NCBI GenBank assembly: GCA_964605225.1
Contig: CAZSAY010000003.1
Coordinates: forward strand, 1,863 to 65,862
DNA length: 64,000 nt
Source of the DNA: an uncultured Thermodesulfobacteriota bacterium
Lineage (GTDB): Bacteria; Desulfobacterota; GWC2-55-46; JADFVP01
Reading direction: 5' to 3'
The position numbers and the translations under genes were made by a program. Shown here piece by piece: positions 8,522 to 32,321 of this stretch. Position 1 is the first letter of the stretch; each line of letters begins with the position of its first letter. The notes beneath the pieces are model-generated. The model did no database searches, was not told the origin of the DNA, and worked only from the letters and a program-made list of their open reading frames with translations.

Positions 8522-9769
8522 ATGCAGGCAGTAATCTTGGCGGCGGGATACGGTAGCAGACTGGAGAGGGTCTCGAATGGGCTCCCAAAGTGCCTTGTGC
8601 CAGTAGGCGGCCGTCCCATTATAGAACATCAGATAGAGGCGTTGAACGACGCCGGCATAGGTCAGGTGCTTGTTGTTGTGGGGTACAAGGCCGAAGAGGT
8701 TCGAAAGGAACTTGGCGCGCGTGTTGAGTATATTGAGAACACCCGTTATGACGAGACGAACAGCATATATTCGCTCTGGCTCGCCCGTGACTGGATAGAT
8801 GGCCCCTTTGTCATGATGAACTGCGATCTGCTCTTTCATCCCCAGATACTGGATCGCCTTTTGTCTCAGGGTGGCAACGGCCTTGCCTTTGATTCTTCCT
8901 CCACCGGTGGGCGTGAGCAGACAAAGGTGGCCGTGCAGGAGGGAAGGGTAGTGGACCTTGGAAAAGATCTACCCTCTGAGTTGTGCCGCGGCGAGAGCAT
9001 CGGCCTTACCTGTTACGACGCCAAAGGGGTGCACAACCTCATGGCGCGCGCCGATGCGCTTATTAAAAACGGCGCGGAGAATTCCTGGAGCATAGAGGCC
9101 ATACGGGGCATATGTTCAACCGTTAAAATGAAGGCATATAACGTAGCCGGCATGCCATGGGTAGAGGTTGATTTTCCAAATGATCTCGTTCGCGCCGAGA
9201 AAGAGGTCTGGCCCGCCATCATGAAGAGCAGATGGAAGAGAACCGTACACTGGAAAAAGACAAAATACCTTGCCATGGCCCTTGTAGCCGCGCTCCTTAT
9301 CTTTTCAGGTTTTGCGTTGGATCACTTTTCCGCCCCCGAGAAGGTTGATTGGACCTCAGAGGCCCCCATAGACGGGCAAAAGACCCTTCTGAAGGCTTCG
9401 AAGGGCTATCAGAAGTGGTGGATATCCACGGCTGGAACGCCCCTCAGGGTCAAGTTTGCGGGGCCGCTTCACGTCAGGGCCTATATGCGCCTTCTTATGC
9501 CTCCGGGAACGGCGAAGCCGGGCAGATATGTCGTGCAGGTTACCCTTGATGGTAAGCCCTACGCGTGGAGCGTCTTCAAGGCAACACCGGACAAGAAGGT
9601 CGCTTATGCAGGGGCCGTGGTGGGAGACCGCGACAGAGTGGATGTTGATGTGCCGGCGGGGTCTCATACGGTGGAGCTCGACCTTGTGGCCGGTGTAAGC
9701 AAGAGGTTTCTCGGGCGTATTCGATATCCTGAACCCGTGACCACGGAGGTGAATAAGAAGGGAGATTGA
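8522..9769 (+). CDS. Sugar/alcohol-phosphate nucleotidyltransferase (LicC/MobA-like NTP_transferase) fused to one TM helix and a C-terminal extracytoplasmic domain
   Basis: The N-terminus MQAVILAAGYGSRL...LPKCLVPVGGRPII carries the nucleotidyltransferase signature. A TM helix (YLAMALVAALLIFSGFAL) sits at about residue 250. It is followed by ~150 aa that are beta-rich and motif-free. Confidence 0.7.
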   Translation: MQAVILAAGYGSRLERVSNGLPKCLVPVGGRPIIEHQIEALNDAGIGQVLVVVGYKAEEVRKELGARVEYIENTRYDETNSIYSLWLARDWIDGPFVMMNCDLLFHPQILDRLLSQGGNGLAFDSSSTGGREQTKVAVQEGRVVDLGKDLPSELCRGESIGLTCYDAKGVHNLMARADALIKNGAENSWSIEAIRGICSTVKMKAYNVAGMPWVEVDFPNDLVRAEKEVWPAIMKSRWKRTVHWKKTKYLAMALVAALLIFSGFALDHFSAPEKVDWTSEAPIDGQKTLLKASKGYQKWWISTAGTPLRVKFAGPLHVRAYMRLLMPPGTAKPGRYVVQVTLDGKPYAWSVFKATPDKKVAYAGAVVGDRDRVDVDVPAGSHTVELDLVAGVSKRFLGRIRYPEPVTTEVNKKGD

Positions 9770-15777: not shown

Positions 15778-15853
15778 TGGAGGCGGCGAGCGGATTCGAA
15801 CCGCTGGATGGCAGTTTTGCAGACTGCTCCCTTAGCCACTTGGGTACGCCGCC
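15778..15853 (-). tRNA. tRNA-Cys (anticodon GCA), CCA encoded
   Basis: The reverse complement is GGCGGCGTACCCAAGTGGCTAAGGGAGCAGTCTGCAAAACTGCCATCCAGCGGTTCGAATCCGCTCGCCGCCTCCA. It has a 7-bp acceptor stem, anticodon loop CUGCAAA, TTCGAAT T-loop and discriminator U. Confidence 0.9.
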
Positions 15854-15936: not shown

Positions 15937-16331
15937 TAAGGCACGCAGGAGGGGGTGTGGGGTACAAGTGCCATTCTCATTAGGTTATCTATTTCAGAGT
16001 CCCCCTCCATTGCTCTTTTTTACCAGAAAAAGGCCGCTACAACCGCGGGACCCGCTTTTTTCAAGCCCTGCTATTTTTTAAACCCCGCCTTTTTTGCCTT
16101 TCCCCGGCAGGCCCCCGTCTTTTTTCTTTGAGATAAACCTTTGCCCTAAACTTTCATCGTTGCCCGCCGATAGTAAATAACATAGACACTCTTAGAAACG
16201 CGCGCAGGGCGGTCTCAGGGTACAGATCATAGCGCGCTCACCTGGGATAGTCGCGGTAGCACGGCATGTAAACCGGATTTTTCACCCATGACGGCCTCGT
16301 AAGGGCGTCCTTTATCTTAAGGGGTTTTAAT

Positions 16332-16931
16332 ATGAGCAGAGTCAGACTTCTTGAGCGTGATTATCAACTCAAGTTCTGGTTGAGGTTCTGCGGCCTTACC
16401 ATAGGCGGCTTTACGGCCTTCGCCCTTTTTCTGTATCTCACCACCGGCCGTGACCTTGGCCGATCCTACGGCGAGGCCATGTACACTATTTACGCCCTGA
16501 GAATAAATATCTCTTCCCTTATTCTGGCCTCTGTTTATTCCATCGTCATCATGGTCCTCACGGCGGTTTTCATTTCCCTGGTCTCCATATTTTTTACTCA
16601 CCGCATGGCAGGACCCATCTTCAGGTTTACTCAGGACCTTGAGCCTCTTGCCTCAGGGGATATCAGAGGTGAGACGAGGTTCAGGAGACTGGATCAGTAC
16701 GCTCTGCTGGCGATGGAGAAAAATAATATGACAGAGAGGCTGAGGTCTCTTGTAGTGGCGTCAAGGGATGATTTTTCGGCCGTGAGGGGGGCTTGTAAGA
16801 GGCTCGTTGAGATGGCCTCAGGTGGTGAGGGTTCCGAAGGCGAGGAGCAGATGAGAGAGGCCCTTAAGGACCTTGGTCTGCTCGTGGAGCAGATGATGGC
16901 CAGGGCCCAAAAGATAAAGACAGGCATATAA
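16332..16931 (+). CDS. 2-TM membrane protein with a cytoplasmic HAMP-like domain and coiled-coil tail; no output domain
   Basis: Two hydrophobic helices flank a ~25-aa loop. A HAMP-like segment follows (HRMAGPIFRFTQDLEPLASGDIRGETRFRRLDQYALLAMEKNNMTERL), then ~60 aa of helical, charged tail. Confidence 0.6.
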   Translation: MSRVRLLERDYQLKFWLRFCGLTIGGFTAFALFLYLTTGRDLGRSYGEAMYTIYALRINISSLILASVYSIVIMVLTAVFISLVSIFFTHRMAGPIFRFTQDLEPLASGDIRGETRFRRLDQYALLAMEKNNMTERLRSLVVASRDDFSAVRGACKRLVEMASGGEGSEGEEQMREALKDLGLLVEQMMARAQKIKTGI

Positions 16932-16935
16932 TATC

Positions 16936-17784
16936 GTGGCGCACAAGACCCCTGCCCTTCGGGGCGGCGGAGGTTATAGACAGGTGATAAAGGTTCTGTT
17001 CCTACTCTTATTGGCGGCGGCTATCCCAGTTTTTTCAGACTCCCAGGCATCTCCGGAGCCAGGGTATCACGATTTTAGCGGCCTATGCCTTGATTGCCAT
17101 ATAAAAATGCCCATGCCCGGAGAAAAAAGGCCCACCCTTAAAAAAGACGTGACCGTATTATGCGATAAGTGCCATAAACAGGAGGACGGCCTCTCACACC
17201 CCGTTGACATAAGGCCAGCCATGGACGTGCCCGATAATCTGCCCCTTGACTGGAGGGGCATGGTTACCTGCGTTACCTGCCACAGCGTTCATAAGCCTGG
17301 TTTCGGCCCTTCTCACATGAGGACAAGGGCCCGGGGGCAGGGCTTTTGCGTGCTCTGCCATAGTGGTCCTGACGAGAAGATGCACAGCGTCTTTGGTGTG
17401 GGCGCGCATATGGGCGGGGTGGTAAAGGCGGCCTATGCTCCCGGCAATATCGGAGTGGTGCGCCTTGATGAGATGAGTATAAAGTGCATGAGCTGTCATG
17501 ACGCGATATTAGGCTCTGAGTCTACTGTTACAAACGTGGATATCTACAGGAGCCAGCATAGCAACACAACGGGGCTGACCCATCCCGTGGGGGTCTCTTA
17601 TGCCGAGGCAAAGAGAAAATACAGGGGCGCTTACAGGGACATGGCTAAACTGCCCCCGCAGATAAAGTTCTACGGCGGCAGGGTCGGTTGCGGAACCTGC
17701 CACAGCCCTTACGCGAGGGGACATTCGCAGCTGGTAATGGACAATTACGGGAGTAATCTCTGCCTTGCCTGTCATATTAAATAG
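16936..17784 (+). CDS. Periplasmic heptahaem c-type cytochrome
   Basis: Seven CXXCH motifs are present (CLDCH, CDKCH, CVTCH, CVLCH, CMSCH, CGTCH, CLACH). There is an N-terminal signal-like hydrophobic segment. The start is GTG. Confidence 0.85.
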   Translation: MAHKTPALRGGGGYRQVIKVLFLLLLAAAIPVFSDSQASPEPGYHDFSGLCLDCHIKMPMPGEKRPTLKKDVTVLCDKCHKQEDGLSHPVDIRPAMDVPDNLPLDWRGMVTCVTCHSVHKPGFGPSHMRTRARGQGFCVLCHSGPDEKMHSVFGVGAHMGGVVKAAYAPGNIGVVRLDEMSIKCMSCHDAILGSESTVTNVDIYRSQHSNTTGLTHPVGVSYAEAKRKYRGAYRDMAKLPPQIKFYGGRVGCGTCHSPYARGHSQLVMDNYGSNLCLACHIK

Positions 17785-17838
17785 GCAGGCCCGTAGTTGA
17801 AAGCAGTTTAATGTTATGCTATGATAGGGAGGTCTCAA

Positions 17839-18447
17839 ATGGGCAGATACCCCTGGTTCAGGAGAAGGCGGTTTTTTATCCGCAAAGGCCCGCAGGGCCG
17901 TTTCGTTGTGGGGATGGCCGTTGTCGTAACTCTGGGGCTGTTAATCAACATTATTGCCGCTTATTTTCTCATTGATAACAGGCTTGCCGCGAGGCTTTAT
18001 AAAATTCACTTGCAGGCGAGCTCTACCTTGGATATAATCTGGCCTGTTATATGGAAGTTGACCCTTGGGAGCGCTTTTTTTGTAGTCCTCGCCGGGGTTG
18101 CCCTGGGGTATTACCTCACAAGGCGTCTTGATATCGTGCTCGTATCTTATCTTGATGTCATGAAAAGGGCGGGCCAGGATAAGGACCTCACCGTGAGGGT
18201 CAGGACCTCGTCTCATGACCTTTCTGACGCGGGTAGCGCCTTTAACAGGGCTATAATGTTTTTTGATGAGAGGCTCGGAAAGGCAAAGGTCGCTGCTACA
18301 GAGATAGAGACTTCCATGAAGGAGATAAACCGCCTCATGGGAGCCCAAGAGGAGCCGTTAAGAAGAGAAGAACTCATAGCAGAACTGAATCATATGATGT
18401 CACGAAGCAATGAAGCGTTAAACGATATCTCAATTTTCAGGGTATGA
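17839..18447 (+). CDS. Second 2-TM HAMP-only membrane protein (architectural paralogue of 16332..16931)
   Basis: It has the same layout: an R-rich N-terminus, TM1, a ~30-aa loop, TM2, then a HAMP-like segment (TRRLDIVLVSYLDVMKRAGQDKDLTVRV...LSDAGSAFNRAIMFFDERL) and a coiled-coil tail. I prefer the ATG at 17839 with GGGAGG 7 nt upstream. The track start is 17821. Confidence 0.6.
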   Translation: MGRYPWFRRRRFFIRKGPQGRFVVGMAVVVTLGLLINIIAAYFLIDNRLAARLYKIHLQASSTLDIIWPVIWKLTLGSAFFVVLAGVALGYYLTRRLDIVLVSYLDVMKRAGQDKDLTVRVRTSSHDLSDAGSAFNRAIMFFDERLGKAKVAATEIETSMKEINRLMGAQEEPLRREELIAELNHMMSRSNEALNDISIFRV

Positions 18448-18453
18448 TATTAT

Positions 18454-19605
18454 ATGAGACAAACTTCGCGAAGAAGCTACGCTACGGTATTTATTAAATT
18501 TTTCATAGCCATCGTCTTTTTTTCCCTTCCCGCCCTTATGCTTCCGGTAAAGGCCTATGCGGATTGGCCTATGTTCATGAAGGACAGGGCACATTCCTCA
18601 TTTGCCGCCGCGGCTCCGAGGCCTCCTCTTAAGGTCCTCTGGAAATTCTCCACAGACGGCCCTGTTTATTCATCACCTGTTGTCTCTGGCGGCAAGGTCT
18701 TTGTGGGCTCTTATGACAACAGGCTTTATGCCCTTAAAGAGGATTCCGGAGTTAAGCTCTGGAGTTTTGCCACTGGCGGTGAAATCCTATCAACTCCGGC
18801 TGTCAAGGACGGTCATGTCTATTTTGGCTCAAAGGACGGCAAATTCTACTGCATTGACGCCAGGGACGGAAAACTCATCTGGAGTTTCACTACAGAGGGG
18901 TCCATACTTAACTCTCCCGTAGTGGGCGACGGTAAGGTCTTTTTCGGTTCATCGGACATGTTCTTCTACGCCCTTGATGCTGGCACGGGTAAGAAGATCT
19001 GGCGGACGAAGCTCCTCGCTTACGATAGATACAGCGGCATATACTCATCTCCCATGTACTACAAGGGCGCCGTAGTCTTTGCCGGCAAAAACGGATTGGT
19101 CTACTCACAGGAAGGCAAGAGCGGCGCCAGAAACTGGGGGTATAACTCCAATTCCGCCATATACTCAAGCCCCGTTGCGAAGGACGGCACAGTATACATG
19201 GCTCTCGGCAAACGAAAATTAATTGGTTTTAACGCAAAAACCGGCGACATTACCTTCAGAAAAAACACCGGTAAGTCCCTCATATATTCCTCACCCGTTG
19301 TGGCGGGAGGTAAGATTTATCAGGCCTTTAAAGACGGCCATATAAGGGCTTTCGGGATGCGGCGCGGCAAAGTTCTCGCCGATTACAAGCTCCCCGCTCC
19401 TGTTAACTCAACGCCTGTTGTTACCTCTAATGGTTTTATATATGTGGGGTGCGATGACGGCCGTCTCTATGCCATTGACATTATCCTTGGCGAGGTGAGC
19501 TGGAGTTATGCCACGGGCGGCGCGGTACATAGCTCACCGGCCGTATCAGGCGGCAGGCTCTTTGTCGGTTCAAAGGACGGCTCGGTCTATGCCTTCGGGC
19601 AATAG
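18454..19605 (+). CDS. Secreted PQQ-like (BamB-type) beta-propeller repeat protein
   Basis: A signal peptide is present (…VKAYA/DW). Blades of the form SSPVVxxGKVFVGSxDxxLYALDxxTGKxxW are repeated about 8 times. Confidence 0.8.
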   Translation: MRQTSRRSYATVFIKFFIAIVFFSLPALMLPVKAYADWPMFMKDRAHSSFAAAAPRPPLKVLWKFSTDGPVYSSPVVSGGKVFVGSYDNRLYALKEDSGVKLWSFATGGEILSTPAVKDGHVYFGSKDGKFYCIDARDGKLIWSFTTEGSILNSPVVGDGKVFFGSSDMFFYALDAGTGKKIWRTKLLAYDRYSGIYSSPMYYKGAVVFAGKNGLVYSQEGKSGARNWGYNSNSAIYSSPVAKDGTVYMALGKRKLIGFNAKTGDITFRKNTGKSLIYSSPVVAGGKIYQAFKDGHIRAFGMRRGKVLADYKLPAPVNSTPVVTSNGFIYVGCDDGRLYAIDIILGEVSWSYATGGAVHSSPAVSGGRLFVGSKDGSVYAFGQ

Positions 19606-19694
19606 CCTCTAATGGCTTTTTAATCTTTAGTTATGTAAAAGATAAACTTCAGGCAAGGGCGTAAGGGCCGTGCCTGTATAAGGGTCAATTTATC

Positions 19695-20291
19695 ATGCGT
19701 ATTGCGTATACCGTATTTTCAAGAAGCATTGCCATCCTCTGCCTCCTCATCTTCGCCTGCTCTGGTCCTGCCATCGCGGCGAAAAAAAAGGTGGTTAGAA
19801 AGCTCTCTTATGACAAGGCCTCTGCCAGAAAGTCCCTTATAGATCCACACGAACAGATAAATGACGAAGGCGAGATACTCTGGTCAAAGTGTCTTATCTG
19901 TCACAGGAAGATGCCTGATATGGAAAATCTGAAATCGCCTTTGAACTGGGAGCTTCGTTTCAGCGGCGATATTGATAAAAACTGTTATATCTGCCACGTT
20001 GTAAAAAAACACCCCGGCTCCCAGGGTATAGGTGTTGCTATGAGCGGCTTCAAGGCGCCCAGTCATCTCAGGGAGCTCTCAAGAAAATTATACCTTAACA
20101 TGAGGCTTGAGAAAAAGGATGTACCTGTCCTTCTTCCCCTTGATCCCGCCACAGACAAGATATTCTGCGGGACATGTCATAGCCCCCATGAGAGGGGCTT
20201 GCTTTACGGCAGAGCAGACTGGGGCGCGGGACAGGAGACGCGCCTGAGGACAGAGGGGCTGGATATCTGTCAGTACTGTCATAGAAAATAG
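19695..20291 (+). CDS. Tetrahaem c-type cytochrome with signal peptide
   Basis: Four CXXCH motifs are present (CLICH, CYICH, CGTCH, CQYCH), with an N-terminal hydrophobic leader. Confidence 0.8.
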   Translation: MRIAYTVFSRSIAILCLLIFACSGPAIAAKKKVVRKLSYDKASARKSLIDPHEQINDEGEILWSKCLICHRKMPDMENLKSPLNWELRFSGDIDKNCYICHVVKKHPGSQGIGVAMSGFKAPSHLRELSRKLYLNMRLEKKDVPVLLPLDPATDKIFCGTCHSPHERGLLYGRADWGAGQETRLRTEGLDICQYCHRK

Positions 20292-20309
20292 GTGGCATCT
20301 GGTAAAATT

Positions 20310-21449
20310 ATGAAAGAGAATCCTTCTTTGAACGGTTGTTTTAGCTCCTCAAGTGGGCAGTGGACCGGAGCCCCGGGACGCGCTTTGGCGCTCTTCTTGC
20401 CATGTCTTCTGGTCGTTGCCCTTTTCTTCGTCGCCGTCGGCTGCGGAAGCCCTGATATATCCTCACAACAGTCAAAAGACTTCAAACACAAACCCCTCAT
20501 CTGGCCGGAACCTCCCGCGGCGGCGCGTATAGCCTTTGATATTTCAATAGCAAGGCCCGAGGACGCAGGCATCAAGAAGGGGCTCTTTAAAAAAATTGTC
20601 GATGTCGTTATGGGCGAGGACAAGCGCTCCATGGTGAAGCCCTACGGTATCGCCGTGGATAACAATGGCAGGGTTATTGTGGCTGATACGGCCTTTAAGA
20701 GGCTTCATATATATGACAGGAAGAAAAAGAAGTATTTTCATATAGACAGGGCAGGCAAAACCCCTCTGGTCTCGCCCATAGGGGTGGCCACGGACAACGC
20801 GGATAACATATATGTAAGCGATTCCGTGGCGCGAAAGGTCTACGTCTTTAACTCAAAGGGGCATTTGCTACGCTCTATTGACGGCGGCGTGCGGCCCACG
20901 GGTATAGCCGTTGACGCCCCGCGAAAGCGTCTTTATGTGGTGGACACGGGCGCACATGAGGTGAGTATATTAACCCTGCAGGGTAAACTCATAGGGAGTT
21001 TTGGAGGCCTCGGCTCGGGAGAGGGTCAATTTAATTATCCCATGGATATCTTTGTTGACGACAGGGGCGATATATATGTGACGGATTCCATGAACTACAG
21101 AATTCAGATTTTTGACATGAATGGCCGTTATCAGACGAGTTTCGGCGAGCACGGTGACGGCACAGGCGACTTTGGCCGGCCAAAGGGCATAGGGGTTGAC
21201 TCTGAGGGGAATATCTACGTGGCCGACGCCGTATTTGATACGGTTCAGGTATTTTCAAGGAAGGGCGCCTTTCTTCTTAACTTTGGAAAACTTGGCTCAG
21301 GGGCAGGAATGTTCTGGATGCCCGGCGGACTCTTCATAGATGGCGCCGACAATATCTACGTGGCAGACCCGTATAACAGGAGGATAGAGGTCTTCGAGTA
21401 TCTTGGCGGCGGTGGTGATGAGGGAGGGGTGTTCCGTCGGCGCGGTTAG
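20310..21449 (+). CDS. NHL-repeat beta-propeller lipoprotein
   Basis: A lipobox-like FFVAVGC is present. There are six NHL-type repeats (e.g. PIGVATDNADNIYVSDSVARKVYVFNSKG; YPMDIFVDDRGDIYVTDSMNYRIQIFDMNGR). The start is ATG 20310 or GTG 20292. Confidence 0.8.
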   Translation: MKENPSLNGCFSSSSGQWTGAPGRALALFLPCLLVVALFFVAVGCGSPDISSQQSKDFKHKPLIWPEPPAAARIAFDISIARPEDAGIKKGLFKKIVDVVMGEDKRSMVKPYGIAVDNNGRVIVADTAFKRLHIYDRKKKKYFHIDRAGKTPLVSPIGVATDNADNIYVSDSVARKVYVFNSKGHLLRSIDGGVRPTGIAVDAPRKRLYVVDTGAHEVSILTLQGKLIGSFGGLGSGEGQFNYPMDIFVDDRGDIYVTDSMNYRIQIFDMNGRYQTSFGEHGDGTGDFGRPKGIGVDSEGNIYVADAVFDTVQVFSRKGAFLLNFGKLGSGAGMFWMPGGLFIDGADNIYVADPYNRRIEVFEYLGGGGDEGGVFRRRG

Positions 21450-21503
21450 CCAGGGGGGAGGGTTAAACATGGGCCTGCTCTCACAAGGATATGAATTTAA
21501 AAA

Positions 21504-21670
21504 AAGGGGCCTGATTTAAAGGGGGGGGTAAAAAAGGTTTTAATTTTTTACAAGGGGCCTGGTTTTGAAAAGTGTCTGGTTTTGAAGGGGCCTGGTTTTT
21601 ACAAGGGGCCTGGTTTTGAAAAGTGCCTGGTTTTGAAGGGGCCTGCTTGTTAAGGGGTGTGGTTTTAAAG
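21504..21670. repeat. Tandem array: ~9 units of ~17 bp (core GGGGCCTGGTTTTGAA), including two adjacent 51-bp higher-order copies
   Basis: 21550-21600 and 21601-21651 match at 48 of 51 positions. Each comprises three ~17-bp subunits. Degenerate units flank them at 21504-21520 and 21653-21670. The array lies in the ~410-bp gap between the NHL gene and the 11-haem cytochrome gene. Confidence 0.85.
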
Positions 21671-21860
21671 GGGCATAGCGATATAAGCAGGTGCCCGAAG
21701 TCTTGAGCTTTGCCAGTTATGAGAGGCCGCTACGGAGTGCCTCAACACGGGCAGGCGGCAGGCAGAACTTTTATTTTCATAATTTCCGCAGGGGGTTTAC
21801 CCGTTGCCTGCGTTTTTTCATCTCTCATCAAAGTAGGTCTTTAGCCGCTGGAGGGTTGTC

Positions 21861-24077
21861 TTGAGATACGAAGAGTTTATCAAACGTGGAGCGCCTTATG
21901 GACAAAGGTCTTACGGACGTCCCGTGAAGGCACGCTCGTTCTTTCGCGCTTTTGCCCGGGGCATTGGTCTGCTTACTCTCGTGCTCATGTTTCTTGCCAT
22001 GGGGCCCGCCCCCGCCTCTGCCACAGTGGCCGCCACAAAACATAACTTCAGCGTCTTTTCATCGGCCGCTGTGAAGACCGTAACCACCACTAGGATATGC
22101 GTCTTTTGCCATGCCCCCCATAACACAAACCCGTCAGGCCCCATGTGGAACAGAGCGGATTCAGGGGCCACCTATAATATCTACCAGAGCGATACCGTCG
22201 TGGCTACCATGGGTCAGCCCACTGGTTCCTCAAAGCTCTGTCTCTCCTGTCACGATGGCACTATAGCCATAGGCTCACTTCTGAACCTGAGCGGAGGCCC
22301 TGCCAACCTGCCCGTTACAGGCCCGGGTGTTACTTCCGGCAAAATGACCACCGCCTCCACCGCTTTTGTAGGGACGGATTTAAGGGATGACCATCCCATT
22401 TCCTTTGACTACGCTCTCTCGAGCCCGGCAAATGTGGAGATAAAGGCGGCCGCGTCCCTTCCGGCGGAGGTGAAGCTTGAGAAGTCCAATAAGAAGAGCA
22501 TGGTTCAATGCACCTCTTGCCATGATCCTCACGGGACCATATACCCGTCCTTTATGGTAGAGCCCCTTGAGAACGGCGTGCTCTGCGAGGCCTGCCATGA
22601 CAAGAGGTACTGGAACACCAATCCCTCGGTACACAGAGACTCTCTGGCCCTGTGGAATACCCTTGGCCAGAATCCCTACCACCTTGATATGGGCGCATCG
22701 GGCTTTGGCGATGACACGCCAAAGATGCATAGCTGTCTCTCCTGTCACCGCAGTCATGGCGGCATGGCCGGGAAAAGTCTCTTGAAGGGCACAAATCCCA
22801 CAAGCGGACTCATAGAGGATGGGGAGTGGACCTGTCTTAACTGTCATAACGGCAATGTGGCGGCCAAAAATATAGATGGCCTTTTATCCAGGATATCCAT
22901 ACACGACGTCAAGGGTGTCAGCGGCGCCCATATACCCTCGAGGGCCTTTTCCGGAGATCCGGTACGCGAAACCGCTCTCAACCTCGGCACCAACAGGCAC
23001 GCCGAATGTGTGGATTGCCACAATCCCCATGCGACCAAGGCCGGTAACCATCCCATAGGCGGGATCAACGGTAATATCATAGGTTCCAACCTATTAGGCT
23101 CTTGGGGCGTCAGGCCCGTATTATGGCCTTTCTCCGGACCCGTTATCAGCTATCAGGAAGTTGATTTCCTCTCAACTACGCCCGGGGGCTATAACCTTGA
23201 GGGCTACCTCTGCATTAAGTGCCATTCCTATTACGCCTACGGGGTCATACCGCCTGACGTGCCTTCCGGAAACGCCGATGGCAGCATTGTAAAAGAATCA
23301 GACCCCACAGTTGATTTCAATATCAATAATGAGGGCTTTCATCCCGTTTTCGCGGCAGGCAGGAACAGGCCCCTGCCCACGGCCAACCCCAACTGGCCGG
23401 CCAACGGACTTGGCCTTACCAATACATTTACTTATTTCGATTTTTCCGGCATAGGGCCGAGGACAGGTTTTTTCAATGTTAAACACGATTCCACCATAAC
23501 CTGCACGGACTGTCACGGTCCGGATTCAGCCTCTGACCCGCAGGGTCCTCATGGCTCCAATAATAAGTGGATCCTCAGAAATAATCAGAGGACCGTGGGG
23601 TCTATTCAAAACTTCTGCTACAACTGTCACAGGCGCGATGTCTACGGAGACGAGGGCTATGTGGGGCCAAACGCGAACTTTTCCAGGGTGCCGCACCCCG
23701 TTGACGGCCTTGGCCTTGCCTCGCCTTTTTACACGACAGGCGTAGGTACAGGCAATGACAGCAACCGTTTCGGCAATCTCTGCCTTACCTGTCATGGCGG
23801 CGCCTATGACACGGCAAATAACATGATGAAGGGTATACACGGAAGTAACGCCCCTGCCGGAACGGTGGTGGGATCGAGTCCCCTTGGATTCAGGCTTATG
23901 AACGGGGCCTGTATAGAGTCTTATGTGCCGGCCACGACGCTTACAAGTGCAAAGCTCTACTTCAGAACCGTCAGCTCGGCTCTCGATAAGGTATGCAAGA
24001 ATAATTTTGTCAATATTCTTACCACCGGCGTGAAGGCTACATATAATTGCAATACAGTCACCGATTGTTCAAATTAA
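21861..24077 (+). CDS. Large undecahaem c-type cytochrome (doubled-CXXCH-type motifs)
   Basis: Eleven CXXCH motifs are present (CVFCH, CLSCH, CTSCH, CEACH, CLSCH, CLNCH, CVDCH, CIKCH, CTDCH, CYNCH, CLTCH). The signal peptide reads RSFFRAFARGIGLLTLVLMFLAMGPAPASA. The start is TTG 21861 (GGAGGG upstream) or GTG 21924. Confidence 0.85.
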   Translation: MRYEEFIKRGAPYGQRSYGRPVKARSFFRAFARGIGLLTLVLMFLAMGPAPASATVAATKHNFSVFSSAAVKTVTTTRICVFCHAPHNTNPSGPMWNRADSGATYNIYQSDTVVATMGQPTGSSKLCLSCHDGTIAIGSLLNLSGGPANLPVTGPGVTSGKMTTASTAFVGTDLRDDHPISFDYALSSPANVEIKAAASLPAEVKLEKSNKKSMVQCTSCHDPHGTIYPSFMVEPLENGVLCEACHDKRYWNTNPSVHRDSLALWNTLGQNPYHLDMGASGFGDDTPKMHSCLSCHRSHGGMAGKSLLKGTNPTSGLIEDGEWTCLNCHNGNVAAKNIDGLLSRISIHDVKGVSGAHIPSRAFSGDPVRETALNLGTNRHAECVDCHNPHATKAGNHPIGGINGNIIGSNLLGSWGVRPVLWPFSGPVISYQEVDFLSTTPGGYNLEGYLCIKCHSYYAYGVIPPDVPSGNADGSIVKESDPTVDFNINNEGFHPVFAAGRNRPLPTANPNWPANGLGLTNTFTYFDFSGIGPRTGFFNVKHDSTITCTDCHGPDSASDPQGPHGSNNKWILRNNQRTVGSIQNFCYNCHRRDVYGDEGYVGPNANFSRVPHPVDGLGLASPFYTTGVGTGNDSNRFGNLCLTCHGGAYDTANNMMKGIHGSNAPAGTVVGSSPLGFRLMNGACIESYVPATTLTSAKLYFRTVSSALDKVCKNNFVNILTTGVKATYNCNTVTDCSN

Positions 24078-24222
24078 AGAGAGGCTATGTGTGAGGGGTT
24101 TTCTTAATCAGACAAGGCCTGTTCCATTAAACTCAAGAGGGCTCGCTATCTACAGGCGCATGAAGGGTATCCTTAAATTATTTGAAGAGCCACATCCTGC
24201 TTCACGTCGCGGGGATGTCATT

Positions 24223-24639
24223 ATGCATGGAAGAAAAGGCCTTTATTTTATTGCGCTAACAGTTGTTCTTGTCCTTATGTTCGGCCTCCAGCTAAGTCAC
24301 TCTACCGTGGCAGGGGCCGCCTCCACAGGTAACAACCCTCATGATTTTTCCAATAAAGAGGAGTGTTCCTCCTGTCACGGGAGCTCAATGCCGTCCTTGA
24401 GTTTCGACTCCGTTACAGTCTGCACGCGTTGTCATGAGGGGTTTCTTGGCAACCATCCCGTGGCAAAACACCCCATAGGCAAGATACCGGAGATAAACAT
24501 AACCAAACTTATGCCCCTTAGCTCTGATGGAAAGATGGTATGCTATACCTGTCATGATAATCATAACAGTTCAAGTTATCCTAAGATGTTGAGGACAGAT
24601 TACATGCGGTTATGCTCATCGTGCCACAGAGGGTATTAA
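24223..24639 (+). CDS. Tetrahaem c-type cytochrome
   Basis: Four CXXCH motifs are present (CSSCH, CTRCH, CYTCH, CSSCH). A hydrophobic leader follows the Met at 24223. The track ORF begins at GTG 24091, so the start is uncertain. Confidence 0.75.
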   Translation: MHGRKGLYFIALTVVLVLMFGLQLSHSTVAGAASTGNNPHDFSNKEECSSCHGSSMPSLSFDSVTVCTRCHEGFLGNHPVAKHPIGKIPEINITKLMPLSSDGKMVCYTCHDNHNSSSYPKMLRTDYMRLCSSCHRGY

Positions 24640-24669
24640 AAAATCGTCTCTACGGGAGGTCTTTTTAGA

Positions 24670-25602
24670 GTGAAGTTCCTGCGTTTGTCCCTTATACCGG
24701 CCGTTCTTATCGCCGCGTCCATGGCACTGCCGCTCTCGCCGATAGCCGCGGCGGAGTTAAAAGGCCCATCCGGTCCACCTGAATACCACAAGGTTCAGCC
24801 GCCGTCATGGTACGGCTCCGTTGTAATGAAGAAGAATATAAAGAAGGGTGAGGCCGTGGCGCCGGTGGTCTTCAAACACTGGTTGCACAGGAGGTATTAT
24901 ACCTGCAATGTCTGCCACGGAACCCTAGATTTCGCCATGAAGGCAGGCAAAACGGATATCAGGCAGGCGGATATCGAGGCCGGGAAAAAATGCGGGGCCT
25001 GTCATAACGGAGAGGTCGCCTTCGGCCCTGATAAATGCCTTCGCTGTCATTCATATGGGCTGAAAGTAAAGGAAAATTCGCGTTTAGAGTACGCCCTAAA
25101 GGGCATGCCGAAAGATGATTTTGGCAACAAGGTAAACTGGGTCAAGGCCCTTCGTAAGAAAAAGATAAGACCCGCCGCCTCCCTTGAAGGCAAGGGAAAA
25201 CTCAAATCCCTTGATAAGGACATAATTATTCCATCGACCATTTACACCCCGGCCCCTCCGGCGGTGCTCTTTCCCCATAAGGCCCATACCGAGGTCATGG
25301 ACTGCAAGTCCTGCCACCCGGGGCGCTTCAAGGCTAAAAAGGGAGGCACCCCCGGGATGGACATGATGAAGATAATAAATGGCCGGTACTGCGGCGCATG
25401 CCACGGCAAGGTGGCCTTTCCTCTTGAGGATTGTTTCCGGTGTCACTCTCAGGCGCAGATAATACCTGACTGGATAACAGGAGCGGATGAGGTAAAAGAA
25501 AAGGCTGCCAAGGAAAAACAAAAAAAAGAGAGAGAAAAAAAGAAAAAAGAAGAGGAAGAGAGAAAGAAAAAAAAGAAAGGACCGCGTAAATTCCTCTTTT
25601 AG
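24670..25602 (+). CDS. Hexahaem cytochrome made of two c7-like trihaem units, with a Lys/Glu-rich C-terminal tail
   Basis: Six CXXCH motifs fall in two similar blocks (FKHWLH..CNVCH..CGACHNGEVAF..CLRCH, and FPHKAH..CKSCH..CGACHGKVAF..CFRCH). A signal peptide is present. The tail reads EVKEKAAKEKQKKEREKKKKEEEERKKKKKGPRKFLF. Confidence 0.8.
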   Translation: MKFLRLSLIPAVLIAASMALPLSPIAAAELKGPSGPPEYHKVQPPSWYGSVVMKKNIKKGEAVAPVVFKHWLHRRYYTCNVCHGTLDFAMKAGKTDIRQADIEAGKKCGACHNGEVAFGPDKCLRCHSYGLKVKENSRLEYALKGMPKDDFGNKVNWVKALRKKKIRPAASLEGKGKLKSLDKDIIIPSTIYTPAPPAVLFPHKAHTEVMDCKSCHPGRFKAKKGGTPGMDMMKIINGRYCGACHGKVAFPLEDCFRCHSQAQIIPDWITGADEVKEKAAKEKQKKEREKKKKEEEERKKKKKGPRKFLF

Positions 25603-25776: not shown

Positions 25777-28407
25777 ATGGAAGTTATCTCCGCCCATGTG
25801 AACGCGGACTTTGATGCCCTTGCCTCGATGGTAGCCGCTTTAAAGCTCTATCCTGAGGCAAAACTCGTCTTTCCCGGCTCCCTTGAGAAGGCCGTAAAGG
25901 GAGCCCTTCCCACACTGACCCTGCCCTGCAGATTTTACAAGATAAAAGAGATAGACCTCTCCCTCATTACCCGTATTATACTCGTTGACGTGAGAAGCTT
26001 GACGAGGATCGGGCCCCTTTGCTCCATAACGGGCAAAGAGGGTATGGATATTCATATCTATGACCATCATCCCTGCCCTGCCCCTTCGGCAGAGGACCTG
26101 CACGGGCAGGTAGAGGTGGTGAAACCATACGGGGCTACGACCACGGTGCTCGTAGAGATATTAAAGGAGAGGGCCCTTGATATAACCCCTGCCGAGGCCA
26201 CCCTCATGATGACCGGTATCTACGAGGACACAGGTTCACTTACATATCCCTCCACCACGGCCAATGACCTCATGGCCGCCGCTTTTCTTCTCTCAAAGGG
26301 CGCGGACCTCTCGGTTGTCTCTGATCTGCTCGTTAGAGAGCTGACGCCGGAAGAGGTATCTTTTCTGAATGAATTATTAAAGAGCGAGACCACCGTGAGC
26401 TTCGGAGGCTTTGATATAGTGATAGCCCAGGGCGTCTTTACGCGTCACAGCGGTGATATTGCCATACTGGCCCATAAGATAAGGGACATAGAGGGCATGG
26501 ATACGCTCTTCATGCTTGTCGATTCCGGCGATAGAATTCACGTTGTGGCAAGGAGCAGGGGGAGTGGCGTGGACGTTGGTCTCATATTAAAGGGCGTTGG
26601 CGGCGGCGGACATGTGCACGCGGCCTCGGCGACGCTAAAGGGCCTTACATTGATCGAGGCGAGGGAGGTGCTTTTATCGGCCATCAAAAAGGGTATCTCC
26701 TCGGCGCAGAGCGCGGGGGACATCATGAGCTTTCCCCCTATTACCGTTGGAGAGAAGAGGCCCCTGCAGAACGTTGCCGCCATACTTGGCAGATATAATA
26801 TAAACGCCATACCCGTAGTGGATGATAACGCGCTAAAGGGTGTCATTACGAGGCAGACCATTGATAAGGCCATGTATCACGGCCTCGGGCGTTCTCCTGT
26901 AAGCGATTTCATGACCATAGATACCCAATGCGTTAGCCCCGATACCCCTGTGGATGAGATAAGGGAGATGTTTATACAGCATGGCCAGAGGCTTATACCC
27001 GTGGTAAGAGCTGAGGAGGTGAAGGGCGTTATCACCAGAACGGATATACTGCGGCTTCTTCAGGAGGAAGTACGGGGTGAGGGGCCGAGGCTCAAGGTTA
27101 TCTCAAAGCTCATGGGCGAGGTGCTTCCGGCCTGGCTTATGGAGATACTGACCTCCCTTGGCAGGGTTGCCGAGACCCTTAACTGCAGGGCCTATGTGGT
27201 GGGAGGTTTTGTGCGCGATCTTTTGTTGCAAGAGGACAACCTTGACGTGGATATCGTAATAGAGGGCGGCGACGGCATAGCCTTTGCCAGAAGCTACGCT
27301 AAAGAGATGGGACTGCGTGTGCGCGCCCACAAGAGATTCAGGACAGCGGTCCTTATATTCCCCGACGGGTTCAAGATAGACGTGGCCACGGCGCGCCTTG
27401 AGTATTACGAGAGCCCCGGAGCCCTGCCCACCATTGAGCAATCTTCCCTGAAGCTCGATATATACAGAAGGGATTTTATCATCAACACCCTTGCCGTTGA
27501 GCTTAACCCCGCACGTTTCGGCACCCTTATTGATTTTTTTGGAGGTCAGCGTGATATAAAGGAAAAAAAGATAAGGGCCCTCCATAACCTGAGCTTTATC
27601 GAGGACCCCACGCGCGCCTTCAGGGCGGTGAGGTTTGCCGTTAAGTTTGGTTTTTCCATAGAGCCCCATACGCGAAACCTTATCAAAAAGGCCCTGGCCC
27701 TTAATGTTTTCAAACATCTTTCGGGACCGCGAATCCTTGAGGAACTTCGGAGCATCCTTGAAGAGGATTCGGCCGTCAAGGCCATAAAGGGGCTGAAATC
27801 CCTTGGTCTTCTCTCTGTTATCCACAGGCACATTACCTGCGACACGCCGCGGGAGGCCTTTTTTGAGAGGGCCAGAGAGGCCATTGCCTGGCACAGGCTC
27901 CTCTATACGGGAGAAACTGCCGAGGCCTGGCTGGTGCTTTTTCTGGCGTTGACGGACGGGCTCAGCGAGGCCATGCTGAGGTCAGTGATAAAGAGGCTAT
28001 CCATATCCGGCAGGAAGAGGGTGGAGATACTCGGCGCGAGGCACGCTTGCCAGAGGGCCTTAAAACGCCTTGGCTCGGAGCGCCGCCCCGATAAGAACAG
28101 CGAGCTCTACGGTATGCTCCTCCCCCTTCCCATTGAGGGGCTACTCTATATGATGGCGAAGACTGAAGACGAGGGTATAAAGAGATCTATCTCAACCTAT
28201 ATTACATCTCTTCGAGGTATTACCCCGGAGCTTGGGGGCTCGGACCTTAAGGCCCTTGGCGTGAAGGAGGGGCCGGAGATAGGCCGTGCGCTCGGGGTCC
28301 TGCTCTGCAGGCGTCTTGATGGAGAGATAGAGAAAAAAGAGGAGGAGATAGCATATATAAAGGAGTACCTGGAGAAGGGGCGGGAAAAGGGGGTGCCCCT
28401 TCCATGA
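25777..28407 (+). CDS. Multidomain DHH/DHHA1 phosphoesterase - tandem CBS - poly(A) polymerase/CCA-adding nucleotidyltransferase family protein
   Basis: The N-terminal segments HVNADFDALAS and IYDHH are DHH motifs, and GGGGH matches DHHA1. A CBS pair is present (FPPITV...NAIPVVDD, LIPVV). The nucleotidyltransferase head motif is VVGGFVRDLLLQEDNLDVDIVIEG. Confidence 0.8.
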   Translation: MEVISAHVNADFDALASMVAALKLYPEAKLVFPGSLEKAVKGALPTLTLPCRFYKIKEIDLSLITRIILVDVRSLTRIGPLCSITGKEGMDIHIYDHHPCPAPSAEDLHGQVEVVKPYGATTTVLVEILKERALDITPAEATLMMTGIYEDTGSLTYPSTTANDLMAAAFLLSKGADLSVVSDLLVRELTPEEVSFLNELLKSETTVSFGGFDIVIAQGVFTRHSGDIAILAHKIRDIEGMDTLFMLVDSGDRIHVVARSRGSGVDVGLILKGVGGGGHVHAASATLKGLTLIEAREVLLSAIKKGISSAQSAGDIMSFPPITVGEKRPLQNVAAILGRYNINAIPVVDDNALKGVITRQTIDKAMYHGLGRSPVSDFMTIDTQCVSPDTPVDEIREMFIQHGQRLIPVVRAEEVKGVITRTDILRLLQEEVRGEGPRLKVISKLMGEVLPAWLMEILTSLGRVAETLNCRAYVVGGFVRDLLLQEDNLDVDIVIEGGDGIAFARSYAKEMGLRVRAHKRFRTAVLIFPDGFKIDVATARLEYYESPGALPTIEQSSLKLDIYRRDFIINTLAVELNPARFGTLIDFFGGQRDIKEKKIRALHNLSFIEDPTRAFRAVRFAVKFGFSIEPHTRNLIKKALALNVFKHLSGPRILEELRSILEEDSAVKAIKGLKSLGLLSVIHRHITCDTPREAFFERAREAIAWHRLLYTGETAEAWLVLFLALTDGLSEAMLRSVIKRLSISGRKRVEILGARHACQRALKRLGSERRPDKNSELYGMLLPLPIEGLLYMMAKTEDEGIKRSISTYITSLRGITPELGGSDLKALGVKEGPEIGRALGVLLCRRLDGEIEKKEEEIAYIKEYLEKGREKGVPLP

Positions 28408-30670: not shown

Positions 30671-30896
30671 CGCATTTGCCGCGGCCACCGGGGCCGTTAA
30701 GGTAGTTCGTTTATCAATGGGCGAAGAGGTGCGTCCTCAAAAACACCATGTACTTCCCTGCCCCCTTTACAGCCAGGGCATGAGTTTTTTAAGACCCCAA
30801 CCCGGAGGCGCGTCAACTATTATCCCACCACAGAAGGCCTTTCCCGGACCACCTTTTAATCGTAAACTTAGGCTTCAGGGCATCTCGGATATTAAA

Positions 30897-32321
30897 ATGG
30901 GTATAAAGTTAAAGTACGCTATAATCCTCTCCATGCTTCTGTGCGCTATAACTTCTGTTATGGGCGTATTCATGGTGGTAAATCAGAAACACTCCATGGA
31001 ATCGCAGATAAGGTCCATGGCCGGCGCTGTGACAGGCGGGTTCTCGCGCAACAGCAAATTCCCCATCCTTGAGGACGACGGCCTCGCCATGAGCCAGCTC
31101 ATAGATAATATCCTTAAAAACCCCACCATATCAGACGCCTACATACTCAACGAAAATTTTATCGTCAAGGCTCAAAGGAATATGCAGACCATAGGCGAGA
31201 GGTTTTCCATGGCCCACCGCCTGGAAAAGCCCCGGGGAGATTACCCCTGGGTGATATCCGAGGACGAGAACGCTATCACCTATGCCACACCCGTATTTTT
31301 TAAGGATACGAAGGTAGGGTACACGGTTGTCTCTTTTTCAAAGGCCTTTATCAGCGAGAGGGTAAGGGCGGTGGTGACGAGTCTTGTCATAATCACCATC
31401 ATATCCATAATCCTTGTATCGTTAATTTCCATACCCCTTGCCTCGGGTTTTTTAGCTCCTATATTCATGTTGCTAAAAGGCACAGAGGAGATAGTACGCG
31501 GCAACTTTGATTACAAGATACCAGAGGGCCGCGGCGATGAGGTGGGCGAGCTTGTAAGGTCTTTTAACTCGATGGCTTCGGAGCTCAAAAAAAAGGAGAT
31601 TATGAAGGAGGTCTTAAACCTCTATGTCAGCCCCGATGTTGCCGACGAGATTTTAAAGTCGCCCGAGAGCCTTGATCTTGGCGGAAACAAACGGAGGTTA
31701 ACCGTTCTTTTCGCTGACATAAGGGGCTTTACCCGTCATGCCCGGTCCATGAGCCCGGAGCAGACCGTTGCCATACTTAATAGATACTTTAGCCTTGTGA
31801 CGGAAGTGGTCTTCAGTTTCGGCGGCACTATTGACAAGTTCGTAGGCGACGCCGTGATGTGCGTCTTCGGCTCCCCGATATATACGGCCGCTCATCTTGA
31901 GCAGGCCGTGAAGACGAGCATAGCCATCCGGGACGTCCTTGATAAGGTGAACGTCCTCAGGCAGGAACGCGGCGAGCCCCCTTTTCTCATGGGCCTTGGA
32001 CTCGATTCAGGCCCGGTAATTGTTGGCAACATGGGCTCAAGGCAGAGGATGGAGTACACGGTGATAGGCGATGCCGTAAATATGGCCTCGCGCCTCTCGG
32101 ACATCGCCGGAGGCGGAGAGATACTCATCAAAGAGGGGCTCTATCCATCGATTGAGGGGTTCTCACGTAGCGTGCCTGTTGAGTCGGCGATTATAAAAGG
32201 TATTGACAGGCCACTCGGCCTTTATAGTATAGTTGAGCTTAAGGAACGCTGGAGGGTTGAGGTTGACGAAGTTGTGGAAAAGACTATCAGGACCTTGTCT
32301 GAGGAGGGCTTTTTGCCTTAG
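30897..32321 (+). CDS. Membrane-bound class III adenylate/guanylate cyclase with a periplasmic sensor region and HAMP domain
   Basis: The layout is TM1, a ~170-aa extracytoplasmic region, TM2 and a HAMP domain (PIFMLLKGTEEIVRGNFDYKIPEGRGDEVGELVRSFNSMASEL). The cyclase core is present (TVLFADIRGFT, KFVGDAVMCVFG, YTVIGDAVNMASRL). I prefer the ATG at 30897 over the track start 30717. Confidence 0.8.
   Translation: MGIKLKYAIILSMLLCAITSVMGVFMVVNQKHSMESQIRSMAGAVTGGFSRNSKFPILEDDGLAMSQLIDNILKNPTISDAYILNENFIVKAQRNMQTIGERFSMAHRLEKPRGDYPWVISEDENAITYATPVFFKDTKVGYTVVSFSKAFISERVRAVVTSLVIITIISIILVSLISIPLASGFLAPIFMLLKGTEEIVRGNFDYKIPEGRGDEVGELVRSFNSMASELKKKEIMKEVLNLYVSPDVADEILKSPESLDLGGNKRRLTVLFADIRGFTRHARSMSPEQTVAILNRYFSLVTEVVFSFGGTIDKFVGDAVMCVFGSPIYTAAHLEQAVKTSIAIRDVLDKVNVLRQERGEPPFLMGLGLDSGPVIVGNMGSRQRMEYTVIGDAVNMASRLSDIAGGGEILIKEGLYPSIEGFSRSVPVESAIIKGIDRPLGLYSIVELKERWRVEVDEVVEKTIRTLSEEGFLP

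Follow-up and report, generated by a model that had tools for sequence, protein, structure and literature searches.

A nine-gene multihaem cytochrome locus (g1–g9) occupies positions 16332-25602 of a 64,000-nt stretch of DNA (hereafter the window) from an uncultured Thermodesulfobacteriota bacterium, contig CAZSAY010000003.1. We read this locus, with a probability of about 0.6, as a lineage-specific reduced derivative of the OmcE/Uet-type system joined to a HAMP–heptahaem–HAMP module. Clusters of the OmcE/Uet type build OmcE filaments in Geobacter and Desulfuromonas, and electron uptake has been proposed for them in Candidatus (Ca.) Tenderia (bioRxiv 10.1101/2025.10.22.684050; 10.1101/2022.05.06.490989). 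Because its core belongs to a described cluster type, the locus is not categorically new. What is new is the clade's layout without a β-barrel or a free OmcE subunit, the recurrence of the HAMP–heptahaem–HAMP triple and the presence of a complete OmcE-like module in the undecahaem family.

All nine open reading frames (ORFs) were found on the + strand where a sequence-only reading of the window had placed them. Motif counts give 7 CXXCH in g2, 4 in g5, 11 in g7, 4 in g8 and 6 in g9, bearing out its tally of 32 over nine co-oriented genes; together with the domain matches, these counts also uphold its description of a multihaem electron-transfer locus. By motif count, the variant haem motifs CX3CH, CX4CH and CXXCK do not occur in the nine-gene locus. 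Elsewhere in the window, the ORFs that reach 150 amino acids (aa; 22,206 aa in total) hold just two CXXCH motifs, both in a single dihaem protein, and the haem density of the locus is therefore far beyond chance. Intergenic gaps from g1 to g9 are, in order, 4, 36, 6, 89, 0, 411, 13 and 30 bp. N-terminal signal peptides and the g6 lipobox were read by eye from the protein sequences, and the likely true starts of g3 and g8 were judged by homologue lengths. The features of the locus, with 2TM denoting two transmembrane (TM) helices, are as follows.

16332..16931, + strand: g1, predicted 2TM-HAMP-coiled-coil protein, HAMP subfamily A, 199 aa, no output domain
16936..17784, + strand: g2, heptahaem cytochrome c, 282 aa, 7 CXXCH
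17821..18447, + strand: g3, predicted 2TM-HAMP-coiled-coil protein, HAMP subfamily B, likely start 17839
18454..19605, + strand: g4, secreted PQQ_2/BamB-like β-propeller (PF13360, PF13570)
19695..20291, + strand: g5, tetrahaem cytochrome c, not OmcE-like, 198 aa, 4 CXXCH
20292..21449, + strand: g6, NHL-repeat β-propeller lipoprotein (PF01436, lipobox)
21450..21860, no strand: g6–g7 spacer, 411 bp, tandem repeat inside
21861..24077, + strand: g7, undecahaem cytochrome, 738 aa, 11 CXXCH
21966..22604, + strand: OmcE-like tetrahaem domain of g7, residues 36-248 (PDB and profile matches)
24091..24639, + strand: g8, tetrahaem cytochrome c, likely true start about 24223 (~138 aa)
24670..25602, + strand: g9, hexahaem cytochrome with two predicted c7-type trihaem domains (TIGR04257, PF14522)

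The undecahaem cytochrome carries a predicted OmcE-like domain

The gene for g7 begins at a TTG codon, with a GGAGG ribosome-binding site and a signal peptide, and a homologue search returned 5610 homologues of its product, including an identical protein. Residues 36-248 align over the whole OmcE chain of G. sulfurreducens (PDB 7tfs, 5.8e-22) and end to end with the D. soudanensis OmcE homologue (PDB 9yuq, 4.7e-22), and the g7 family profile matches OmcE in the PDB at 4.4e-39. H61, H84, H87, H131, H178, H221, H224 and H246 do not vary among 15 homologues with identities as low as 38%. All four CXXCH motifs of OmcE are kept in g7, as are its four distal histidines (H61, H87, H178 and H224), and these alignments indicate that the first four haem sites of g7 form a complete OmcE-like domain. 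One histidine of an OmcE filament subunit serves as ligand to a haem of its neighbour (PMC9473688); by alignment, g7 retains a histidine of this inter-subunit type along with every other OmcE-type haem ligand. A hidden Markov model (HMM) built from 56 short OmcE-like proteins finds its full-length window match only inside g7, with partial matches in g2, g5 and g8. Beyond the OmcE-like domain, g7 continues into a 490-residue seven-haem extension without a solved relative.

The NHL–undecahaem pair recurs across phyla

To place g7 in context, 80 loci with g7 homologues were taken from a degenerate-pattern scan, one genome per species, and their neighbours were assigned by six-frame ORF comparison. 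These loci cover Planctomycetota, Ignavibacteriota, Calditrichota, Nitrospirota, Acidobacteriota, Verrucomicrobiota, Gamma- and Betaproteobacteria, Desulfobacterota, Aquificota and others. In 71 of the 80, the gene immediately before the g7 homologue is an NHL gene homologous to g6, and g6–g7 is a pair conserved across many phyla. Exactly 11 CXXCH motifs are present in most long g7 homologues of the sampled loci (84/101). A barrel-like protein of ~650-700 aa without a Pfam domain, whose gene usually sits immediately before the NHL–undecahaem pair, is encoded in 63/80 loci and in 30 of the 36 that have full 10-kb flanks; its C-terminal residue is Phe in 46 of 58 full-length examples, and a barrel profile seeded on locus L017 matches 65/87 loci. 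A short OmcE-like cytochrome, tetrahaem in 53 of 56 such proteins, occurs in 53/80 loci, and at least two NHL genes occur in 51/80.

This neighbourhood is that of the published OmcE gene cluster and is of the same kind as the uet cluster. An uncultured gammaproteobacterial locus (L062, 888-13307) follows the published uetA-J order, with genes for an OmcE-like tetrahaem cytochrome, a SurA-like prolyl isomerase, a 586-aa unknown protein, c7 cytochromes, an NHL protein, an undecahaem cytochrome and ResB. That the gene at its uetA position is OmcE-like implies that uet and omcE clusters are one kind, an equivalence that we did not find stated in the literature consulted on these clusters. The gene at the uetJ position of L062, through which alone Tenderia UetJ was compared, encodes a protein 32% identical to g7 (E 2e-60). 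The sequence-only reading had held that the locus maps to no named layout: it indeed has no Mtr, Pcc or Ext match, but its core belongs to the OmcE-nanowire/uet cluster type.

A reduced layout in the window's clade

Exact or close relatives belong to uncultured Thermodesulfobacteriota. All nine genes stand in the same order in GCA_001595385.3 and CP129479.1, and loci L008 and L092 preserve most of that order. GCA_001595385.3 is assigned to the Desulfobacterota class GWC2-55-46, with unusual ubiquinone-based bioenergetics (10.1101/2025.09.17.676790). Identities to the window proteins are 59-81% for g7 across the clade and only ~36% for g1, and the nine-gene order is retained where g7 is 59-62% and g1 ~36% identical. 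Upstream flanks vary: two relatives have genes of haem biosynthesis there, L092 has CcsA/Lon and the window has tRNA-Cys. The downstream flank is syntenic within the clade. Propeller and HAMP genes are co-conserved with the cytochromes in related loci, the opposite of the outcome that the sequence-only reading had named as speaking against itself. It had also allowed for an already characterised system with the same gene order, and here the answer divides: the modules match those of omcE and uet clusters, but the arrangement of all nine genes is confined to this clade.

The clade keeps the NHL, undecahaem and c7 cytochrome genes. The barrel profile finds nothing in the window, in L001-L004 or in L008, and there is no barrel in the L092 gene list either; a stand-alone OmcE-like gene and a second NHL gene were not found in any clade locus.

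A HAMP–heptahaem–HAMP module, beside kinase genes in other lineages

Taken singly, g1 and g3 have no Pfam match, and BLASTP of g1 against g3 returns nothing; their paralogy, and their orthologues elsewhere, emerge from iterated profile searches over the fetched loci. A profile built from 15 members of the g1/g3 family hits the chemoreceptors PcaY and Tsr in their TM2-HAMP-helix segment (PDB 6s18, 4.9e-8), with weaker matches to HtrII and the Af1503 HAMP, and Pfam HAMP is reached by 6 of the 15 members (best 2.2e-7). The HAMP signature P / G-D / D..N-x-M is visible in the family alignments and conserved across phyla. An AlphaFold 2 model of g1, with a predicted local distance difference test (pLDDT) score of 74, comprises TM1, TM2 running into AS1, a connector, AS2 with a long helix, and a C-terminal helix. 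Given the profile matches, the Pfam HAMP matches in relatives and the modelled helix architecture, g1 and g3 are genuine paralogous 2TM-HAMP-coiled-coil proteins, in agreement with the HAMP identity first suggested for them. Both have an outer loop of ~25 residues, and their chains end ~70 residues past HAMP. The extracytoplasmic part of g3 has a conserved motif, K-I-H-L-Q-x-x-S-T-x-D-I-I-W-P, and an exact g3 homologue (P0132) is 202 aa long.

Word-indexed homologue searches gave 10 proteins for g1 and 32 for the g1/g3 alignment. An exhaustive HMM search of 1.84 billion representatives gave, among its best 150, ~140 proteins with lengths of 125-241 aa, mostly 180-215 aa, so this small HAMP family, matched nearly full-length, comprises at least ~140 clusters at 50% identity. 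No description of the family or of the HAMP–heptahaem–HAMP module was found in the literature searched. The g3 subfamily also has a conserved RRRxFFIxKGxQGRF just before TM1 (g3 N-terminus, 17821-17900). A Tat (twin-arginine translocation) signal at this place (RRRxFFIxK; cf. (S/T)RRxFLK) was considered and set aside, the residues probably reflecting positive-inside charge only. Binding of haem b or quinone by the g1/g3 TM helices was ruled out, there being no conserved TM His.

The cytochrome between the two HAMP proteins, g2, has an N-terminal signal peptide or signal anchor and a Paired_CXXCH_1 match (8e-13). Its residues 177-282 match positions 108-227 of the OmcE-like HMM (independent E value 6.6e-20), and by this match the C-terminal half of g2 resembles the C-terminal half of the OmcE-like domain. 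Against the NrfH model TIGR03153 it scores 13.8 bits (E 0.047) where the cutoff is 134, and so falls outside the family.

Outside the clade, L017 (Nitrospiraceae), L025, L091 and L095/L096 have OmcE-type clusters that include a barrel gene and carry the full triple at their 3' end, and partial triples lie at contig ends in L010, L090 and L097. Genes of the g1 and g2 types, 4 bp apart in the window, overlap in other lineages, and in L095 the triple overlaps the g7-like gene. After the triple, genes for a sigma54 response regulator and a HAMP histidine kinase follow in convergent orientation in L017, L090, L091, L095 and L097, with these coordinates in three of them:

L017, 12030-14803, - strand: sigma54 regulator and HAMP kinase genes
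L091, 10587-13504, - strand: sigma54 regulator and HAMP kinase genes
L095, 9845-12764, - strand: sigma54 regulator and HAMP kinase genes

In L096 the corresponding place is taken by an uncharacterised convergent gene, with which the locus ends. In L025 the triple is followed by a 300-aa HisKA-HATPase core (8634-9536) whose N-terminus is a coiled coil and which lacks TM and sensor domains. These kinase neighbours suggest a split redox sensor in which the heptahaem cytochrome would be the sensed or sensing partner, and a signalling role for g1–g3 is supported because the triple adjoins kinase and regulator genes in other lineages. A part for the HAMP proteins in redox sensing, raised by the sequence-only reading, is thus plausible.

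Other features were seen near related genes. HAMP histidine kinases with periplasmic CXXCH motifs lie beside NHL–undecahaem clusters in L011 (11681-13201) and L022 (8981-10933, - strand); they come from Calditrichota and Ignavibacteriales metagenome-assembled genomes and are candidate c-haem redox sensors. A secreted protein of ~250 aa without a Pfam domain is encoded between the undecahaem gene and the triple in L017 (9292-10077), L025 (5739-6491) and L091 (7873-8637), and is absent from the window's clade. A HAMP mini-protein (P0160, L093/L094) is encoded after a c7 cytochrome gene and 52 bp upstream of an orthologue of the DHH-CBS-polyA-polymerase gene; this adjacency may reflect shared ancestry or a real link.

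The other propellers and cytochromes

Pfam and NCBIfam profiles agree with the earlier description of a PQQ-like propeller, an NHL lipoprotein and a doubly c7-like g9. The propeller g4 matches PF13360 (1.2e-49) and PF13570 (9e-60) in Pfam, with every NCBIfam match under its cutoff, and has an ordinary signal peptide (..VKAYA before DW). Outside the clade, a g4-like propeller gene with a g5-like cytochrome gene behind it turned up in L007 alone. That Pseudomonadota locus also holds a cytochrome b gene, two NHL genes and a g7 homologue, after which come genes for ResB and a CcsA-family protein. The second propeller, g6, matches the NHL family PF01436 (1.9e-29) and carries a lipobox (..FFVAVGC). 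Neither g5 nor g8 has an OmcE match in the PDB, where g5 has no relative, and g5 matches the OmcE-like HMM just by a C-terminal motif. A Paired_CXXCH_1 match (3.9e-10) was found in g8, whose orthologues are 130-140 aa long.

TIGR04257 matches g9 over two stretches (1.4e-36), PF14522 matches it at 2.9e-22, and these profiles indicate that g9 is built of c7-type trihaem domains like those of the periplasmic UetD/E/G and GSU1996-type carriers. The C-terminus of g9 (25490-25602) is a ~35-residue Lys/Glu-rich tail, KEKAAKEKQKKEREKKKKEEEERKKKKKGPRKFLF, coded by an AG-rich repeat; the g9 orthologues of L002 and L003 are 25-40 residues shorter than that of the window.

Proposed mechanism and alternatives

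In a reduced OmcE/Uet-type system of this kind, electrons would move, in either direction, between quinone-linked inner-membrane machinery encoded elsewhere and g8, g9 and possibly g5. The small periplasmic cytochromes would then hand over to g6–g7 at the inner face or the surface of the outer membrane. There g6 may serve as a chaperone or docking scaffold for g7, not as a pore, and g4 may do the same with g5 by analogy. An 11-haem path would run through g7, and its OmcE-like end could, in canonical systems, attach to subunits of the OmcE type. A heterodimeric HAMP transducer made of g1 and g3 may read the redox or occupancy state of periplasmic g2 and signal to a cytoplasmic kinase, adjacent in other lineages and unlinked in the window.

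Several points weigh against this proposal. Neither a barrel of this family nor a free OmcE subunit is encoded in the window or in the six clade loci examined, and because these two components are missing, a filament or outer-membrane function is not simply to be assumed. Part of the conservation of gene order may be shared ancestry, since the downstream flank is syntenic, and the clade locus is known from sequence alone. For g5 and g8, the search for orthology to the small cytochromes of canonical clusters found only CXXCH-motif matches. The AlphaFold 2 model of g7, from a 15-sequence alignment, has a pLDDT of 31 and gives no usable fold for the C-terminal seven-haem part. On the sensory side, no kinase or regulator is linked to the triple in the window's clade; Pfam and NCBIfam scans and the model find no methyl-accepting chemotaxis protein (MCP) signalling domain or HisKA-HATPase output in g1 or g3; Foldseek of the g1 model against the PDB gives nothing below E 0.4, its top matches being HAMP proteins; and the HAMP proline, kept in Nitrospirota-type relatives, is lost in the window g3. 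In D. ferrophilus, cytochrome deletions in comparable NHL–cytochrome clusters left Fe(III) oxide reduction in place (PMC9769857).

A further-reaching version, which we put forward only tentatively, would make the HAMP-A/heptahaem/HAMP-B triple an undescribed redox sensor and the g7/UetJ family the base or adaptor that wires OmcE-type filaments. In its sensor part, g2 would equilibrate with extracytoplasmic cytochromes and drive an output-less HAMP heterodimer, hence the separate kinase; in its adaptor part, the window's clade would be an 'adaptor-only' variant without filament subunit and barrel. Which component forms the base or tip of the filament, and how secretion proceeds, are questions posed in the 2025 OmcE paper (bioRxiv 10.1101/2025.10.22.684050). 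The undecahaem cytochrome is a candidate filament base or adaptor because it carries a complete OmcE-like module beside OmcE-type clusters. If this version were true, cells would sense the availability of extracellular electron acceptors or donors through triples of the g1–g3 type. The anchoring, initiation and regulation of cytochrome nanowires are a current question in extracellular electron transfer; the clade variant, with g6–g7 and neither barrel nor filament subunit, can reveal what the pair does alone, and the triple beside kinase genes offers a testable candidate for a sensor of the redox state of extracytoplasmic cytochromes.

Loss of the barrel and OmcE subunit might instead have left a purely periplasmic electron-transfer or storage network working with soluble donors and acceptors, which we regard as unlikely. 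It would fit the absence of barrel and free OmcE from all clade loci and the match of g9 to the c7-type family TIGR04257, c7-type cytochromes being periplasmic carriers in Geobacter, as well as the unusual ubiquinone-based bioenergetics of the class that includes the related GCA_001595385.3. However, g7 keeps all the OmcE-type haem ligands, including the inter-subunit histidine, and its NHL partner g6; these retained features belong to a surface-directed system, and a barrel could be encoded elsewhere in the genome.

It is quite unlikely that g1–g2–g3 form an inner-membrane entry point, with the 2TM proteins anchoring g2 for NrfH/CymA-like quinol oxidation and the HAMP segments being structural only. 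The first CXXCH of g2 does lie ~17 residues after its N-terminal hydrophobic segment, a spacing typical of NapC/NrfH-type cytochromes, and the tight gene packing suggests a stoichiometric complex; the weak NrfH match of g2 and a locus otherwise without a link to the quinone pool point the same way. That match nevertheless falls far short of its cutoff, g1 and g3 have no conserved TM His, the HAMP signature is conserved across phyla, and the triple adjoins kinase and response-regulator genes in other lineages.

Poorer still are the prospects of a self-contained porin-free conduit, in which the NHL and PQQ-like propellers would take the place of the barrel and keep the cytochromes in position at the outer membrane or across it. 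Such a propeller-based conduit has also been suggested for D. ferrophilus DFE_0448-0451 and DFE_0461-0465, cytochrome–NHL clusters in an organism with no recognised porin-cytochrome genes (PMC5815863; PMC9769857). The window and the six clade loci have no barrel gene, as such a conduit would predict. Yet a barrel-like protein adjoins the NHL–undecahaem pair in most loci (63/80, and 30/36 with full 10-kb flanks), and because propeller and barrel co-occur, the propellers are not porin substitutes. β-propellers are soluble folds without a membrane-spanning surface, and g4 and g6 carry, respectively, an ordinary signal peptide and a lipobox.

Chance adjacency of two unrelated modules, g1–g5 and g6–g9, is very improbable: a 411-bp spacer with a probable separate promoter between g6 and g7 and a syntenic downstream flank would allow it, but the nine-gene order persists at identities of ~36% (g1) to ~60% (g7) despite changing upstream flanks, the g6–g7 gap is just ~30-45 bp in L002 and L003, and the triple is linked to NHL–undecahaem clusters in several separately assembled contig sets, overlapping the g7-like gene in L095.

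Spacer, flanks and other features of the window

The gap between g6 and g7, described from the sequence as ~410 bp and filled with repeats, measures 411 bp and contains a 17-bp tandem repeat, GGGCCTGGTTTTGAA(AA), in five to six copies (21545-21674); five matches within 2 mismatches were found versus 0.27 expected. The last ~80 bp of the spacer (ATAATT ... GGAGG) are conserved in L092, whose g7 is 81% identical to that of the window and where the repeat is absent. The repeat is probably a local expansion, not a conserved regulatory site, and because L092 lacks it we do not count it as part of the system. In the 470 bp between tRNA-Cys (15778-15853, - strand), which lies upstream of g1, and g1 itself there are T-rich 17-18-bp repeats, CCCGCCTTTTTTCAAAC, at 16051-16095, loosely similar to the reverse complement of the g6–g7 repeat unit. 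Promoter and terminator scans gave background level only. No riboswitch was found upstream of the cytochromes, the Rfam matches in the window being RNase P and two tRNAs only.

Pfam and NCBIfam scans of the locus found no porin, cytochrome b, NapC/NrfD-type protein, Mo/FeS/Cu subunit or DNA-binding protein, in line with the first description of a locus with no porin, quinol dehydrogenase, catalytic subunit or regulator; the same classes were likewise not found among the 20 larger flanking ORFs scanned. The flanks hold housekeeping genes, namely peptidases, tRNA-Cys, a DHH-CBS-polyA-polymerase-family gene and RNase P RNA, and at 37.5-50.6 kb the gene sizes and matches to MraW, PBP and FtsZ fit a dcw cell-division cluster. 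Downstream of the locus, 25777-28407 encodes an 876-aa DHH-DHHA1-CBS-polyA-polymerase-family protein that is syntenic in all clade members. A HAMP and adenylate/guanylate cyclase protein of 534 aa (30717-32321), 5 kb downstream, shows no obvious connection with the locus. At 11 kb upstream, amid genes for the cell envelope, a 404-aa ORF (4260-5474) has weak autotransporter/Pom β-barrel matches (E ~3e-3) and is not homologous to the barrel family of OmcE clusters. The sole other CXXCH-bearing ORF of at least 150 aa in the window encodes a dihaem cytochrome c of 240 aa (58286-59008), Cytochrome_CBB3/FixO-like.

Comparison with known systems

The minimal omcE cluster comprises two multihaem cytochromes, two propeller lipoproteins, OmcE and a large barrel, and omcE operons are said to encode no OmcE-like tip or base candidate (bioRxiv 10.1101/2025.10.22.684050). 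Like the omcE clusters of Geobacter and Desulfuromonas (PDB 7TFS, 9YUQ), the locus pairs a propeller lipoprotein gene with a multihaem cytochrome gene; the N-terminal 213-residue domain of g7 is homologous to the whole OmcE chain, and the family occurs in many phyla. Unlike them, it has no stand-alone OmcE subunit (~200-290 aa) and no large β-barrel, and it has a single NHL lipoprotein, g6, its second propeller g4 being of PQQ_2 type with an ordinary signal peptide. Its OmcE-like module occurs only as a fusion, the large cytochromes of the Geobacter cluster being compared by description only. The HAMP–heptahaem–HAMP triple, the PQQ-like propeller and the c7-type cytochromes are additions relative to the omcE cluster.

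The uetABCDEFGHIJ cluster of Ca. Tenderia electrophaga and Tenderiales has a proposed role in electron uptake by aerobic autotrophs (bioRxiv 10.1101/2022.05.06.490989; PMC5371394). In gene layout it resembles the locus by an 11-haem cytochrome preceded by an NHL protein, g7 being a putative counterpart of UetJ, and by the combination of c7-type trihaem and tetrahaem cytochromes, the two TIGR04257 domains of g9 corresponding to the c7-type trihaem feature of UetD/E/G. The nine genes and their flanks yielded no UetC barrel, UetB prolyl isomerase, UetF cupredoxin or ccsAB; the locus differs further in having no UetA-type (OmcE-like) tetrahaem cytochrome, and its hosts are uncultured Desulfobacterota.

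Desulfobacterota also include D. ferrophilus IS5, whose DFE_0448-0451 and DFE_0461-0465 clusters interleave cytochrome and NHL genes with no recognisable porin (PMC5815863; PMC9769857). These clusters and the locus are alike in layout only; the D. ferrophilus cytochromes are reported with 12 and 14 haems, and no HAMP proteins or PQQ-like propeller are described there. The osc (omcS-companion) cluster of G. sulfurreducens (Shen et al. 2025), as outlined in PMC13194489, combines a filament cytochrome with propeller-like and channel-like proteins and a prolyl-isomerase chaperone; from that outline, it follows the same logic as the locus with different families (OmcS-type hexahaem). The porin-cytochrome conduits MtrCAB, PioAB/MtoAB, Pcc/OmbB-OmaB-OmcB and ExtABCD share a high haem density and a likely function in electron transfer from periplasm to surface, whereas the locus has no barrel and its cytochrome and accessory families differ: matches reach 52.5 bits against a cutoff of 192 for the DmsE family (TIGR03508) and 22 against 209 for the OmcA/MtrC family.

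For the triple, the nearest comparison is with membrane receptors. The Geobacter chemoreceptors GSU0582 and GSU0935 have periplasmic c-haem PAS domains (PMC8396549). From these and from sensory rhodopsin II-HtrII, g1–g3 differ in that g1 and g3 carry no kinase or kinase-control domain, and the presumed seven-haem sensor is a separate protein with two flanking paralogous transducers. They share with these receptors the TM2-HAMP-helix, and either a c-haem periplasmic input or a separate sensor polypeptide.

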